From a virus (lineage: Duplodnaviria; Heunggongvirae; Uroviricota; Caudoviricetes), in IMG/VR virus record IMGVR_UViG_2579778982_000018: a DNA stretch of 6,407 bases, one strand, 5' to 3'. The notes beneath the pieces were generated by a model that made no database searches, had not been told where the DNA came from, and saw only the letters and a list, made by a program, of their open reading frames with translations. This document shows, piece by piece, positions 433 to 6,407 of this stretch. Positions within the stretch are counted from its first letter, which is position 1. Each line of letters opens with the position of its first letter. Both the position numbers and the translations under genes were made by a program.

Positions 433-460
433 AATAAAAAAGGCGCCATTTCTGGCGCCC
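433..460 (-). terminator. Rho-independent terminator between J and lom (tJ-like)
   Basis: Perfect GC-rich inverted repeat GGCGCC (442..447) / GGCGCC (454..459) with a 6-nt loop; on the minus strand it is followed directly by a T-run (complement of A-run 436..441). Lies just after the J stop codon (TGA, 481..479). Confidence 0.6.
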
Positions 461-478
461 GTATATGGGTTATAAAAT

Positions 479-3400
479 TCAGCTGATACTGATGCCTGCG
501 GTGGCTTTCTTCATCACCACAACCAGCAAATCGCTGATACTTGCTGTGGGATACCAGTTATTCACCAGCCATGCTGACACCGAAAACTCCAGCGTCATGT
601 GACCGTGACCGGCAGGCATATCAATAACGCCACTGTAAATCAGCGTATTATCCAGCGCGGTACGGTTATAAATTTCAGCACCGTTTTTCCGCACTATCAG
701 ACGGCATGAGGAGTAAATATCAGTATGCTCTCTCTCATGCTTAGCGCCACTGAATGCCACCGCCGGAATAACAATCTGCCGGTCAAACGGCTGATCGTCA
801 TAAACCCTGACGGTAATGGTCCCTGATGGCCACCGCTCCGGTGCACGGGAGTCCCGGGGGAAAGCTTTGCCCACTGTTTTAACGAGATCGCCTTCAATCT
901 GGTTCGCGGACAGTTTTCCCAGAACCCGACAGTTCTCGTTAATCGTGACGTTGTTGAGCGTCCCGGAGTTCGCATTCACACTACCACTGATATCCGCATT
1001 TTTAGCCGTCAGCCGCCCGTCCGATGTCAGGGAAAATGCCGGAGGATTACCGCCACTGGTAATGGTGGGAGCCGTCAGATATTTCAGGAACACTTCATTC
1101 ATGAATATCTGATCGCCCTGACCAACAAACATCGGCTTTGTGTTGCCATTCGCAGGATTAATCATCGCAATCCGGTCAGCAGCCAGAAGCACCTGACTCT
1201 GCATACCTGCTGGCGTATTCTCAATACCGGCACCGATACCCGCAATATAAAGGCGTCCGTCCTGCATCTGCTGCAGCTTCACAGCCCACATGCTGTTCAG
1301 ATTATTATTTGTATCAACCTGAACCTTCTGTATCTGCTGGATCGCCGCACTCTGGTCTTCCAGTTTCTTATTGACGGTCTGCGTGATTTCATTGCTGACA
1401 TTCGTAATGGACGTCCTGATTTCAGCCAGGTCCGGCGCAAGCTGACCGTTATCAATCTGCGTCCACAGCTCCTGGGCCAGATGTGTTTTCCCGATTTCTC
1501 CTTTGAAAAAATCCAGGTAACCTTCCGCATCATCGCTCGCCCGACCGACAGCCTCCACGAATGCCGATTTGCCAACGGTGTTCACACTGCGAACGTAAAA
1601 ATAATAATCATGGCCCGGTTTGATATTGATACTGGCGGCTATCCAGTACAGCGCCGTACCAAGATAACGCGCGCTGGTTTCAACCTGCCTGATATCAGCA
1701 ATCCGTTTTTCCGAGAACCAGAACTCAAACTGTACCGTCGGATCATAAACCGCAAAATGCGGCGTGGCGGTTATCTGAAAATAGCCCGGCGTCAGCTCAA
1801 TCCGCGACGGTGCTGCCGGTGCGGCAATCCGGAACGATACCGACGCCGGATCGCCCTGCTGTCCCCACGCATTTACCGCCCGGACTGTCAGCCTGTAGTT
1901 CCCCAGCGCCAGTTGCGTGAAGCGGTATGTGGTTTCCGTCGTCCGGGCCGTGCTGACCAGCCGCTCACTGCCGTCATCCGCTGCCACGGTCAGGCGAAGC
2001 ATGAAGCTCACGCCCTTCACCACCTTCGGCGTGTCCCAGCGCGCCAGCACCTGATATTCCCCGCTGTCTGCGGTGACTTCGGCAGTCAGGTGCTGCACTG
2101 CTGGCGGCGTGACACCATTCACCGTGCCGCTCTGGTCGCCGTCAAAGTGCGCCCCGTTATCCACGATGGCTTCTTTTTCCGGTACATGCTGCACGGCGGT
2201 GATGGCATACGTGCCGTCGTCGTTCTCACGGATACTCACGCAGCGGAACAGGCGCTGGCGCAGCGTCGGCAACTTCAGCCCCCACACGCTGTATTCAGCA
2301 ACGCCGTCAGGAACACGGCTCACTTTCACCTTCACGCCGTCGGTGACGGACTGAACCTCCACGCTGACCGGATTGCCACTTCCGTCAACCAGGCTTATCA
2401 GCGTGGTGCCGGAGGATGGCAGCGTGATTTCACGGTCGAGCGTCAGCGTCCGGGTCTGGCTGTTCACCGCCAGCACGCGCCCGCCGGTGCTGATACCGGC
2501 ATAGTCATCATCACAGATTTCAATGACATCGCCCGGCACATGGCGAAGCCCTTCTGCACCCACGCTGAAGTCCACGGTCTGCGTTTCCAGCAGTTCCGTT
2601 TTAATCAGCCACAGCCCGGCGCGGTGTGCCTGCCCCCGGCTGGTACAGCCAAAGGCATCCATCTTCGTGACGTGACGACCGTAACGGGCAATGGCCTGCG
2701 TATCCTCCACAAGCTCTGTCGCCGTCTCCCAGCCGTTGTTCGGGTCAATCCAGTTCACCTCAACGGCATTATGGCGGTCCTTCAGGGCGCTGAAGCTGTA
2801 GCGGAACGGCGCACCATCATCCGGCATCACCACATTACTGCGGTTATAGGTCCACACCTTATCTGATGGTCGGTCCTGCACGAACGTCAGCGTCTGCCCG
2901 TTCCATACCGGCATACAGCGCATCGCCGAGCAGAAATCACTGAGCACATCCCACGCCTTGCGCTGTGTGGTCAGGTACGCATTACAGGTAATGCGCGGCT
3001 CCGTGCCGCCAAAGCCATCCGGCACTGACTGGTCGCAGTACTGGCCGATGACATACAGCGCCCATTTGTCCACATCCGCCGCACCAAGACGTTTCCCCAT
3101 GCCGTAGCGTGGATGGGTCAGCATATCCCACAGACACCAGGCCATGTTGTTGCTGTATGCCGGTTTAAACGTTCCGTCCCAGATACCGCTGTATTGCCGC
3201 GTCTGCGGGTTATAATTCGACGGCACCTGCAGAATACGCCCGCGCAGATGATAATTACGGCTCACCTGCTGGCTGCCGAACTGCTCCGAATCCACCTGCA
3301 CGCCGACCAGTGCCGTGTTCGGGTAGCACTGTTTCACATCGATGATTTCGGTGTATGACGACCAGAGCGTTTTGTTCTGCAGCTGGTCTGTGGTGCTGTC

Positions 3401-3958
3401 CGGCGTCATCCTGCGCATCCGGATATTAAACGGGCGCGGCGGCAGGTTATCCACCACCACCGAGGCCAGATACTGCGAGGTGGTTTTGCCCTTAATGGTG
3501 ATGTCTTTTTCCGTCACCCAGCCACCATTACGCTGTATCTGAACCAGCAGGCGGACTTCCGACGGATTCCGGTCCCCCTTTGAGGTGGTTTCCACCAGTG
3601 CCTGCACACCGAAGGTAAAGCGCAGACGGTCGATGTTTGCCGACGTGATGGTCCGGGTGATCGGCGTGTCATATTTCACTTCCGTACCCAGCACCGTCTC
3701 GGAGCCGGAGGATTCAAATCCCTCCGGCGGTGTCTGCTCCTGCTCACCTGCCCGGAACACCACCGTGACACCGGATATATTGGTATTCCCCTCACTGTCC
3801 AGCACCGGCGTACTGTTCAGCAGCACGCTTTTTAATCCGTCCACCGGACCTTCAACCGGCCCTTCGCTGATGGCATCGATCACACTCAGCAGCTGCGTGG
3901 ACTTCAGGTTGTCCCTCGCTTCGCGCGGGGTATGCCCCTTACTGCTTCCTTTACCCAT
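479..3958 (-). CDS. J: Tail tip / host specificity protein J (central tail fibre), 1159 aa, with a variant C-terminal receptor-binding region
   Basis: 1159-aa ORF in the track; ATG at 3958..3956 with a GAGG-containing Shine-Dalgarno about 5 nt upstream. The N-terminus [34 protein letters not shown] and most of the first ~870 residues match lambda gpJ (1132 aa) as I recall it. The C-terminal ~290 residues are homologous but clearly diverged and longer. Confidence 0.95.
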
Positions 3959-3970
3959 TCCTCACACTCC

Positions 3971-4000
3971 ATAAACAACAAAGCCGCCCAAAAGGCGGCT
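3971..4000 (-). terminator. Terminator-like hairpin downstream of the inserted lipoprotein gene, immediately upstream of the J ribosome-binding site
   Basis: Inverted repeat AGCCGCC (3982..3988) / GGCGGCT (3994..4000) with a 5-nt loop; on the minus strand it is followed by the U-rich stretch TTGTTGTTTAT. Located between the lipoprotein stop (TAA, 4027..4025) and the J start (3958). Confidence 0.4.
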
Positions 4001-4024
4001 CATGAGTTACGACAGGATTAACTA

Positions 4025-4363
4025 TTATTTACATGCATTAACACTATCAGCAAAAATTTTTGGCGTTAATGCTGGTACACGTTCATAAAGAGTAAAACTA
4101 CTGCCATTTCCTGCTTTTTTGATATCAAGCACAACATCATATCCCCCCATAGCCTGTGGAACTAAAAGGCTTACCCCATTCTCAATAGGAAGGGATGTTA
4201 TAGGTGTTCCATTACCAGCCCATTGTCTGGATATGCAGCCTGACAATTCATCAATATTTTTTAATGAATTACCTTCCATTACAGGTTTTCCGGATTTTAC
4301 GTAATCCAAAGATTTACATCCTGTTAAGGCAATAATCGTGCAGAATAAAATCGTTTTGTTCAT
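4025..4363 (-). CDS. Small predicted lipoprotein (~112 aa precursor, ~93 aa mature) of unknown function; moron inserted between tail genes I and J
   Basis: ORF 4025..4375 in the track; the track's first codon is TTG, and I prefer the in-frame ATG at 4363..4361. From that ATG the product starts MNKTILFCTIIALTGC: positively charged n-region, hydrophobic h-region and a lipobox LTG|C, the signature of a signal peptidase II lipoprotein. The gene lies in a locally AT-rich segment unlike the flanking phage genes. No strong Shine-Dalgarno was found. I do not recognise the mature sequence. Confidence 0.75.
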   Translation of the reverse strand: MNKTILFCTIIALTGCKSLDYVKSGKPVMEGNSLKNIDELSGCISRQWAGNGTPITSLPIENGVSLLVPQAMGGYDVVLDIKKAGNGSSFTLYERVPALTPKIFADSVNACK

Positions 4364-4375
4364 ATAGCTAACCAA

Positions 4376-4436
4376 TAGAATAATTATCAGTGTTCGATAT
4401 AAATATTAAATCAGTTAGAACATGAGTAAAATAATA
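4376..4436 (-). promoter_or_regulatory. AT-rich spacer upstream of the lipoprotein gene; possible moron promoter
   Basis: 61-bp spacer between the I stop and the lipoprotein ATG, roughly 20-30% G+C, containing several -10-like hexamers on the minus strand (GATAAT, TAATAT, TATTAT). I could not pair any of them with a convincing -35 at 16-18 bp spacing, so this is a weak call. Confidence 0.2.
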
Positions 4437-5078
4437 TTACCGCCCAATTACCACAACCTGACCACCATCCCCTTCATCTGCCGTGCTGATCTCCTGAGAT
4501 GCCACACGTGACCCCACGCGCATTTCACCGTACAGAACAGGCAGGACATTGCCCTGGGCAACCATGTTATCCAGTGAGGAGAAATAGGTGTTCTGTTTGC
4601 CGTTATCCGTTGTCTGTGTACGGGGAGTTCTGGCTTTCGGTGCCAGCATCTGCGCCACACCACCAAGCGTCATCGCCGCACCCATTGAAAAGAGAATGTC
4701 ACTGAAAGCGATACTGATCCCCGGCATCCAGATTGCCGTAGCAATCAACGCCGCACCCAGCACCGCCTGAAACACACCGCCACTTTTTGCTCCCGCAAGA
4801 CGCGGCACGATGTGGATCACGGCACCATTTGCCAGCGGCTCATTAAGACGGGATGATAATTCGGTTTCTCCTGCATCCCGCCCGGCAATCCGTACCTGAT
4901 ACCAGCCATCGCTCAGTTTCTGACGAAACGCCGGGAGCTGTGTGGCCAGTGCCCGGATGGCTTCAGCCCCCGTTTTCACACGAAGGTCGATGCGGCGGCC
5001 AAATCGTTGCAAATCCCCGTAAAGGCAGATGCGTGCCATGCCCGGTGACGCCAGAGGGAGTGTGTGCGTCGCTGCCAT
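4437..5078 (-). CDS. I: Tail assembly protein I, 213 aa
   Basis: ATG at 5078..5076 with GAGAGG Shine-Dalgarno upstream; stop TAA at 4439..4437. N-terminus MAATHTLPLASPGMARICLYGDLQRFGRRIDLRVKTGAEAIRALATQLPAFRQKLSDGWYQVRIAGRD and C-terminus APKARTPRTQTTDNGKQNTYFSSLDNMVAQGNVLPVLYGEMRVGSRV..SQEISTADEGDGGQVVVIGR match lambda gpI as I recall it. The central hydrophobic segment differs, and the protein is 213 aa against 223 aa in lambda. Confidence 0.9.
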   Translation of the reverse strand: MAATHTLPLASPGMARICLYGDLQRFGRRIDLRVKTGAEAIRALATQLPAFRQKLSDGWYQVRIAGRDAGETELSSRLNEPLANGAVIHIVPRLAGAKSGGVFQAVLGAALIATAIWMPGISIAFSDILFSMGAAMTLGGVAQMLAPKARTPRTQTTDNGKQNTYFSSLDNMVAQGNVLPVLYGEMRVGSRVASQEISTADEGDGGQVVVIGR

Positions 5079-5719
5079 TTGTCGGTATACCTCTCTCGTT
5101 TGCTCAGTTGTTCAGGAATATGGTGCAGCAGCTCGCCATCACCACAGTAAATAGCGGCATGATTCGGCACCGATGAACCAAAGCAGCACAGCAGCACATC
5201 GCCCGGCTGCGCCGCTGACAACGGCACCTGATACAGCCCCGTTGCCTCCAGATTATCCAGATAGAGATTCTGACCGTGACGCCACCAGTCATCCTCACGA
5301 TGAAAATCCGGCATCTCAATCCCCGCCAGATGGTAAGCGTCCCGGAACAGCGTGTAACAGTCCGTCACCCCGTGCTCAAAGCGCCGCCCGGTAAGATGCG
5401 GCACACAGCGGAACTTGTGAATCGCCCCCCGGCAGACCAGCCACCACGGCAAATCACTCTGCACCTGCAGCCGCCGGTCAGCCTCACTCAGCCAGGGCAG
5501 ACCACCGGGATGACTGTGGACCAGCGCCACAATCTCACCCTGCATTTCTGCCTGCAGCCAGTCCTCCGGAGCCATCCGGAAATAATCCTCCGGCTCACCG
5601 GAAATATTCACGCAGGGAAAATATCTTTCCCCCTCCGGCGTTCTCACCACGAAGCCGCACGACTCCGCTGGCGCACATCGCCGGGCGTGCGCCAGAATCG
5701 CTGATTCTGTCTCTGTCAT
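4976..5719 (-). CDS. K: Tail tip assembly protein K with an MPN/JAMM (Mov34) domain and an NlpC/P60-like (C40 peptidase) domain; 247 aa if started at ATG 5719 (classical lambda annotation would be 199 aa from ATG 5575)
   Basis: Track ORF 4976..5794 begins with GTG inside the end of L; I prefer the in-frame ATG at 5719..5717 (MTETESAIL...), 4 nt after the L stop. It contains a complete JAMM motif HSHPGGLPWLSEAD (H-x-H-x7-S-x2-D) with acidic residues available upstream only in the longer form. It also contains NlpC/P60-like Cys and His contexts (GVTDCYTLF, NHAAIYCGDG). The alternative ATG at 5575 has a GGAGGA Shine-Dalgarno and corresponds to the 199-aa lambda K. Confidence 0.85.
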   Translation of the reverse strand: MTETESAILAHARRCAPAESCGFVVRTPEGERYFPCVNISGEPEDYFRMAPEDWLQAEMQGEIVALVHSHPGGLPWLSEADRRLQVQSDLPWWLVCRGAIHKFRCVPHLTGRRFEHGVTDCYTLFRDAYHLAGIEMPDFHREDDWWRHGQNLYLDNLEATGLYQVPLSAAQPGDVLLCCFGSSVPNHAAIYCGDGELLHHIPEQLSKRERYTDKWQRRTHSLWRHRAWHASAFTGICNDLAAASTFV

Positions 5720-5723
5720 GGGA

Positions 5724-6407
5724 TTACTGCGAAAGTTTGTTAATGGAAAGGAAGCCGCCAAAGTTGCCGACGTTATTGCGGAACTTACAGCCACTCAGGC
5801 ATTTGCTGCATTTATCCTTCGTGATATCGGACGTCGGCTGGTCATATTCATCCGCGACAGCCGGACCGCTATAACCGCACTCGTCACCGCGATAGGTCCA
5901 GGTGCAGGTGTTGGCCAGCATGATACGTCCCGGAAAAACAGCGCCATCCGTTTCCGTCGGCGTGGACAGTACAAAGGAGGCACTCACCGCGCTCAGTTCG
6001 CTGCACTGCTCGATGCGCCAGCGGCTGATCACCTCCTGCTCCGGATCGGCGTAACTGTTTCCGTTGACGAAGTTCACCGCATCCAGAAAACGGGCGTAAA
6101 CCTTACGCCGGACCACCGTTCCGCCGACCAGACTCTGCAGATCTTCCGCCATCCCGGTGACCATACCGTACAGGTTAGAAACCGTCAGCGTGGGGCGCGT
6201 ACTGGTGCCTTTGCCATTCAGTTCAAAACCGCTCCCCTGAATGGGATACGGCTGATACTGTCGCCCCTGCCAGGTGACCGGCTCACCTTTTTCGTTCTGC
6301 TCATTACAGAAAAAATAACGTTCTCCACCGACCTCTGTCAGGTCGATTTCCCAGAGCACCACGCTGGCCGACTGCTCCGCACGGGTGCATTCATTCAGTG
6401 TTTCCTG
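5724..6407 (-). CDS. L: Tail tip protein L, 5' end truncated by window edge (about 5 N-terminal codons missing)
   Basis: Frame is open from the window edge (6407) to stop TAA at 5726..5724. Product ...QETLNECTRAEQSASVVLWEIDLTEVGGERYFFCNEQNEKGEPVTWQGRQYQPYPIQGSGFELNGKG... matches lambda gpL as I recall it, including the C-terminal Cys-rich segment DKCSKCLSGCKF. Confidence 0.9.
   Translation of the reverse strand, partial: QETLNECTRAEQSASVVLWEIDLTEVGGERYFFCNEQNEKGEPVTWQGRQYQPYPIQGSGFELNGKGTSTRPTLTVSNLYGMVTGMAEDLQSLVGGTVVRRKVYARFLDAVNFVNGNSYADPEQEVISRWRIEQCSELSAVSASFVLSTPTETDGAVFPGRIMLANTCTWTYRGDECGYSGPAVADEYDQPTSDITKDKCSKCLSGCKFRNNVGNFGGFLSINKLSQ

Follow-up and report, generated by a model that had tools for sequence, protein, structure and literature searches.

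The J gene considered here follows that of phage lambda closely over most of its length and then departs from it, which raises the questions of where the departure begins, what the diverged end is, and which receptor on the cell it recognizes. A sequence-only reading of this DNA, a stretch of 6,407 nucleotides that we refer to as the window, had proposed a mosaic J with altered receptor specificity. We compared the window with lambda, other lambdoid phages, solved J structures and complete E. coli genomes. It is highly probable, in our judgement, that positions 482–1498 of the window encode the distal part of the central tail fibre of a lambda-like prophage in the form of a common natural allele, whose receptor is OmpC rather than LamB.

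The window carries the tail-tip block L, K, I, J and the start of lom, all on the minus strand and in lambda gene order. L occupies positions 5724–6362, K lies within 4976–5794, I occupies 4437–5078, and J, the tail tip or central tail fibre protein, is an intact ORF of 1159 codons plus stop at 479–3958. These are followed by a lom-like gene of which only the start is included (from 410 downwards), and a putative terminator-like hairpin, recognized by its match to the consensus in a pattern scan, lies on the same strand at 441–460, just past the J stop and before the lom-like gene. The context is that of a tail module, with one extra ORF of 116 codons inserted between I and J (4025–4375, minus strand). 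The closest complete E. coli genomes match the whole window at 96.5–97.7%, and the annotation of the closest one reads minor tail protein L, C40 peptidase, tail assembly protein, hypothetical protein, tail tip protein J and Ail/Lom family. Gene I has a patch diverged from lambda at about 4700–4910.

Against the NCBIfam profile NF049904 (lambda_TipJ), the window J scores 2389 bits with a cutoff of 1950, and its residues 1–1159 correspond to profile positions 1–1163. Lambda J (UniProt P03749; structures 8iyk and 8xcj/8xck) has the same gene position and domain order, and is 84% identical to the window J overall in a pairwise alignment. The order of hub, two FNIII/Ig domains, shaft, Phage_Tail_Tip fibre and Ig_GpJ_C receptor-binding domain (RBD) was found by Pfam and by homology to solved J chains in both halves of the protein. 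The window J has 1159 residues and lambda J has 1132, in agreement with the earlier estimate of about 27 additional residues. Since the long-shaft form fits the consensus length of lambda_TipJ (1163 positions), lambda J appears to be the shorter variant.

Breakpoint and sections of the distal fibre

The proximal part, residues 1–820 (1499–3958, minus strand), comprises the hub domains, FNIII-A and two Ig/FNIII domains, assigned by Pfam as FNIII-A_GpJ (86–207), Phage-tail_3 (330–498), Ig_J (610–714) and Ig_J_second (716–818). It is about 98% identical to lambda J at the protein level, which bears out the near-identity described for the first part of the gene, and the value is still 96% at the end of FNIII-2. 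Applied to the DNA of the window J and of lambda, aligned codon by codon, a maximum chi-square scan peaked (chi2 = 744) at the third position of codon 820, at about window position 1499. DNA mismatches to lambda amount to 88 of 2459 positions (3.6%) before this point and 367 of 934 (39.3%) after it, and identity in 60-nt sliding windows drops there from 95–98% to less than 60%. The recombination breakpoint relative to lambda is thus placed at codon 820/821, just after ...DFFKG (1497–1499, minus strand). Past it, the divergence is uneven and much greater than chance would give.

With the break at about 1499, the diverged portion is 482–1498, or residues 821–1159, and not 479–1355 as first proposed. 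The motif ...DFFKG, previously put at about residue 868, ends at residue 820 in the pairwise alignment; position 1355 corresponds to codon 868, and the earlier start can be ascribed to an error in residue numbering. A start at 1355 would cut through the helical segment and omit 48 diverged codons, including a stretch of J that lambda lacks (residues about 839–866). The helical segment that had been quoted (ending AVKLQQ) is present at residues 853–897, as is the quoted C-terminal ending. Judging from the end of the second Ig/FNIII domain in Pfam (716–818) and from the structural domain order of lambda J, the break falls exactly at the boundary between FNIII-2 and the shaft.

We named the distal domains, and ordered them, after Ge & Wang 2024, that is FNIII-1, FNIII-2, alpha-helical shaft, beta-prism central straight fibre and Ig-like RBD. 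The long alpha-helical shaft covers residues 821–871 (1346–1498, minus strand), and residues 819–871 have no Pfam domain. It is 98% identical to those of VT1-Sakai and mEp460_4F5 but 30% identical to that of lambda, in addition to a gap of 28 residues in lambda opposite residues ~839–866 (~1361–1444, minus strand). The extra stretch starts near a proline (..GQLAPDL..) and, by eye, has hydrophobic residues spaced 3–4 apart. The sequence-only reading had also proposed to model the C-terminal domain. The homologues retrieved were nearly all fragments with 99% identity. An AF2 model of residues 781–1159 was made from the single sequence, with no alignment; it gave one long helix (J 840–891, pLDDT 58–73) at an overall mean pLDDT of 38, and serves here as weak support for the helix alone.

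The central straight fibre, a beta-prism assigned by Pfam Phage_Tail_Tip, covers residues 872–1000 (959–1345, minus strand) and is 67% identical to lambda and 96–98% identical to mEp460_4F5 and VT1-Sakai. Ahead of the RBD lies a conserved junction (953–1006, minus strand) with 57% protein identity to lambda, which holds the longest distal runs identical to lambda DNA, 23 nt in codons 985–992 and 28 nt in codons 993–1002, and which is conserved across all J types aligned. The Ig-like RBD, residues 1029–1159 (482–874, minus strand; Pfam Ig_GpJ_C), is 43% identical to that of lambda, with 11 gap positions and with indels in loop regions. The fibre retains the phenylalanine of QIFMNE (window residue 952), which in lambda J triggers the Gifsy-1 abortive-infection nuclease HepS.

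We then aligned the J C-termini of lambda, 434, phi330, mEp460_4F5, Stx1_14040, Lambda_2H10, PhiR49_2, VT1-Sakai and the solved A8 construct. VT1-Sakai is 96–100% identical to the window J in every distal section. The J of mEp460_4F5 resembles the window in shaft (98%) and fibre (96%) but differs in its RBD (65%), whereas PhiR49_2 has a similar RBD (92%) and a different, even longer shaft (31%). Moreover, Lambda_2G7b (NC_049954), with an RBD 97.7% identical to that of the window, keeps the short shaft and upper fibre of lambda and switches at ...QIFMN|EVFLKY, around lambda residue 926. The shaft and fibre are therefore inherited as one block, separate from the RBD, and the two assort independently among natural phages. 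Together with the sharp break at the FNIII-2/shaft boundary, this upholds the view of J as a mosaic. In these alignments J behaves as three sections, namely hub plus FNIII, shaft plus fibre, and RBD, and the conserved junction is the place ahead of the RBD where natural exchange usually occurs. The literature already describes natural lambdas in which the last ~150 residues of J are swapped (2H10 and 2G7b, the latter with its own host range), as well as four J clusters among gut lambdas. As a discovery, the mosaic carries little weight, since the swapping of J C-termini among lambdoid phages is well documented.

Spread of the allele in E. coli and its phages

The distal allele proved to be widespread. 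In 1,697 complete E. coli records, window positions 479–1500 are matched at 95% or better, and at least 80% of this query is covered by a match in 2,823 of 5,426 E. coli genomes. Where a genome has any match, the number of matching places has a median of 2 and a maximum of 11. A protein search with residues 821–1159 returned more than 7,600 matches, and the best 120 of them are 99% identical except for one at 90%. These 120, annotated as host specificity protein J or phage tail tip protein, belong to E. coli O157, O111, O153 and O177 and to Shigella. Far from being an unusual mosaic, the allele ranks among the commonest forms of J in E. coli.

In the phage collection, 57 records carry an RBD that is 88–99% identical to that of the window, including VT1-Sakai, the PPompW prophages, many long-tailed Stx2a phages, JLK-2012, 2G7b, PhiR5_1 and PhiR55_1. 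The PhiR phages reportedly come from Brenes and Laub in 2025. VT1-Sakai (Sp15), PPompW and PhiR55_1 have the same distal allele throughout, with 96.6–96.8% DNA identity over 479–1355, while the long-tailed Stx2a phages Stx2a_2409, WGPS2 and JLK-2012, together with PhiR5_1, share the RBD and the lower fibre (window 479–1183, about 91–92% DNA identity). In the long-tailed Stx2a phages and PhiR5_1 the RBD protein is 98.5% identical to that of the window. Where these phages match the window, they differ from it by just a few substitutions.

An allele so abundant might reside in a defective prophage and no longer serve infection, in which case its intact frame would reflect recent decay or use through lambdoid recombination. 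Many of the matching places, up to 11 in one carrier genome, are presumably in cryptic prophages. In addition, the J gene of VT1-Sakai is itself split by mutation, and the lom adjoining J is frameshifted in the complete genome closest to the window. Against this, the window shows no disrupted reading frame in J, I, K, L or the inserted ORF, and the plaque-forming phages PhiR5_1, PhiR55_1 and 2G7b carry the same RBD. We consider such a defective state unlikely, although it deserves more weight than any of the alternatives discussed below.

Receptor of the distal fibre

The lambda J chimeras gpJ 1A2 and A8 (Brodel et al. 2024, Nature, PMC11338833) provide the comparison that bears most directly on the receptor. 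Both were selected on a lamB-deleted recipient and were tested in lamB/ompC double-deletion cells with plasmid-borne ompC; 1A2 delivers DNA via OmpC in lamB-deleted cells and not via LamB, accepting many OmpC alleles, that of EDL933 among them, but not that of K-12 (MG1655), whereas A8 accepts both of these, and 21 of 23 OmpC variants are usable by one or both of the two chimeras (PMC11338833). Their fusion point, lambda residue 964, corresponds to window residue 992 and lies in the conserved junction (PMC11338833), so that the last ~167 residues are enough for a receptor switch.

The 1A2 DNA was taken from the Supplementary Information of that paper (PMC11338833), in a copy with machine-reading indels. 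Since a plain tblastn alignment broke into frames through these indels, we compared the sequences by exact 5-mers after three-frame translation. The 5-mers of 1A2 cover 89% of window residues 992–1159 and 92% of the VT1-Sakai equivalent, as against 27% for A8/phi330 and 11% for lambda. What the 1A2 5-mers leave uncovered is limited to short pieces that have matching sequence in other frames on either side, as frameshifts from machine reading would give. In the part of J equivalent to the 1A2 donor, residues 993–1159 (482–982, minus strand), the window differs from 1A2/VT1-Sakai by S993N, R1076K and S1157T (window residue first), with ~19 residues not comparable because of errors in the sequence copy. 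The window RBD is thus nearly identical to the 1A2 donor part, which runs from lambda residue 964 to the end, and 98% identical to that of VT1-Sakai. By this comparison, the donor part of 1A2 is of the window RBD type. Since that donor part by itself moves lambda from LamB to OmpC, and 1A2 depends on OmpC and not on LamB, the proposal of a mosaic J with changed receptor specificity is supported, as an instance of something already known.

The closest solved chain is A8 gpJ 713 (9wca/9wcb; E = 8e-142), compared with E = 8e-121 for lambda J 713–1132 (8xcj/8xck). According to the entry contents, which were checked by sequence, 9wcb also holds three OmpC chains; a literature search for a paper describing 9wca/9wcb found none. 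The type formed by A8, Lambda_2H10 and phi330 has the same C-terminal strand as the window RBD but is only 61% identical to it, with 9 gap positions in variable segments, and is a related but distinct type. For phi330, dependence on OmpC is known from the Keio ompC knockout and its complementation. Phage 434 has a lambda-type hub like the window J, a short lambda shaft, and an RBD of another branch of the family (44% identical to the window), and its J receptor is, according to the literature, likewise OmpC.

By analogy with these systems, the receptor of the window J is expected to be OmpC, in distinction from LamB for lambda. The fibre consists of a distal part, with long helical shaft, beta-prism and Ig-like RBD, joined to a lambda-type hub and FNIII domains at the FNIII-2/shaft boundary, and represents the type of VT1-Sakai/Sp15, PPompW and the long-tailed Stx2a phages with an RBD of the gpJ 1A2 kind. 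By homology with the lambda J–LamB and A8 J–OmpC complexes, the trimeric RBD would dock on trimeric OmpC. Docking would spread the bases of the RBDs, twist the beta-prism and flip the helical shaft; then the FNIII strings would be released and the tail tip would open for DNA ejection. In lambda, part of the shaft (841–861) refolds on LamB binding and the shaft flips (Ge & Wang 2024). The 1A2 chimera has the short shaft and the fibre of lambda, whereas the window J has a long shaft and a different fibre; we infer that this exact J behaves like 1A2 and that the relay would work alike with a shaft 28 residues longer.

A different outcome would follow if the three substitutions, or the shaft and fibre, directed J to another or an additional outer-membrane protein (OmpF, OmpX, BtuB or another) or shifted the set of OmpC alleles accepted. 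R1076K falls within HEREHTD, a segment whose length and sequence differ from one RBD type to another and which for that reason may be a surface loop. Single J substitutions can alter receptor use in lambda, an OmpF-using mutant being present in the literature, and 1A2 is already selective among alleles. Moreover, Gifsy-1 J binds OmpX and BtuB besides OmpC, so that extra receptors are conceivable for the window J; we set Gifsy-1 J aside as a model, its C-terminus being just ~18% identical to that of lambda. The window RBD is nevertheless so close to that of VT1-Sakai, the best match of 1A2, that we hold such a shift to be quite unlikely, and the data point to no other receptor. It is very improbable that the RBD has diverged in sequence and still uses LamB, with a C-terminus inside the functional variation of lambda J: it shares the Pfam family and the fold class of the lambda RBD, and unrelated phages can share LamB, but its low identity to lambda comes with loop-region indels and with variable segments that differ in sequence and length, and 1A2, which has an RBD of this type, is functional in lamB-deleted cells and requires a suitable ompC allele there.

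The shaft and fibre (821–1000) could in addition be more than a passive spacer, determining how far the fibre extends, or what force or threshold applies to the shaft flip that opens the tail tip, and, together with R1076K, giving a host range unlike that of 1A2. We attach little credence to this idea. If it were true, the 28-residue longer shaft would add ~4 nm of reach if fully helical, and a change in reach or trigger could count on cells with O-antigen or capsule.

Thousands of genomes contain the allele, and lambda particles have already been retargeted to OmpC by means of its RBD. The use of the present assignment is therefore mainly in annotation, where J genes with the window-type ending (...[ST]IS) may be read as OmpC-type and not as LamB-type. 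Such a label bears on the prediction of which E. coli strains can be reached by prophages of this kind, including the long-tailed Stx phages.

The inserted ORF between I and J

The product of the extra ORF is lipoprotein-like (MNKTILFCTIIALTGC...). The ORF lies in an insert of 36–37% GC among tail genes of 57–63% GC, and is followed by a terminator-like hairpin of its own. Searches with it gave no match in Pfam, NCBIfam or PADLOC and no tblastn match in the phage collection; its sole match is PHROG 914, whose function is unknown. Of 5,426 E. coli genomes, 337 contain the ORF, and its homologues are exclusively hypothetical proteins from Enterobacteriaceae. We considered whether it is tied to the window-type RBD and found no strict link, as it stands beside a window-type RBD in five of six loci and beside a 434-type RBD in the sixth. 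In three Klebsiella-type loci the homologue is located between K and I, in a lambdoid tail module with a giant J.

The lipoprotein-like ORF between I and J

An extra ORF of 116 codons was found between I and J (4025–4375, minus strand of the window), which is absent from lambda. The insert that holds it (about 3981–4436) has a GC content of 36–37%, as against 57–63% in the surrounding tail genes, and the ORF is followed by a terminator-like hairpin of its own at 3981–4001. Its product possesses a lipoprotein-type signal (…IIALTGC). Searches of this ORF against Pfam, NCBIfam and PADLOC gave no match, and the single family match obtained was PHROG 914, a family of unknown function. Moreover, tblastn of the product across 50,697 phage records returned zero matches; the ORF is carried by 337 of 5,426 E. 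coli genomes. Among the six loci compared, the neighbouring receptor-binding domain at the C terminus of J is of the window type in five and of the 434 type in one.

A homologue 52% identical to this product is present at 6001–6339 in three Klebsiella-type assemblies (L016–L018), where it is flanked by a K-like peptidase gene and an I-like gene in lambdoid tail modules whose J exceeds 3,100 residues. The homologue lies inside tail modules, and therefore the small lipoprotein accompanies tail-tip genes in more than one genus, but not in the same position: I–J in the window and K–I in the Klebsiella-type loci. A role of the product in superinfection exclusion or at the envelope is only a guess.

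A mosaic patch in gene I

The DNA of gene I is 92–100% identical to that of lambda outside one patch of roughly 200 nt (window about 4700–4910, minus strand), in which identity falls to 57–72% and a 30-nt gap is included. This patch encodes residues roughly 57–136 of I and forms a second small mosaic segment within the tail-tip block.

Distal J: copies, receptor data and probable HepS sensing

The distal J allele of the window is also present in the VT1-Sakai prophage (AP000400, J at 1508–4980), where the annotation divides J into two overlapping pieces and describes it as "truncated by a mutation"; the allele is not functional in every copy. For the OmpC results of the lambda J chimeras 1A2 and A8, we relied on the main text, Fig. 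1b data and Extended Data Fig. 1 data of PMC11338833 instead of Extended Data Fig. 2. In the supplementary source data of the latter, the values of both chimeras are equal in the EDL933-OmpC panel C and the K-12-OmpC panel B, which for 1A2 contradicts Fig. 1b and the main text; the duplication probably arose during copying or text extraction.

The peptide of lambda J reported as the trigger of the Gifsy-1 HepS abortive-infection nuclease (residues 902–933; PMC13043305) corresponds to J residues 930–961 in the window (1076–1171, minus strand). The key phenylalanine is retained (QIFMNE, residue 952), and judging from that report, HepS would probably still sense this J.

The region downstream of J

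The J stop codon is followed by a hairpin (441–460, minus strand) that is rich in G+C and carries a T run. A lom-like gene of the Ail/Lom family, whose product begins [13 protein letters not shown]..., starts at 410 on the same strand and leaves the window (region 1–460); the corresponding lom in the closest complete genome is annotated as frameshifted.
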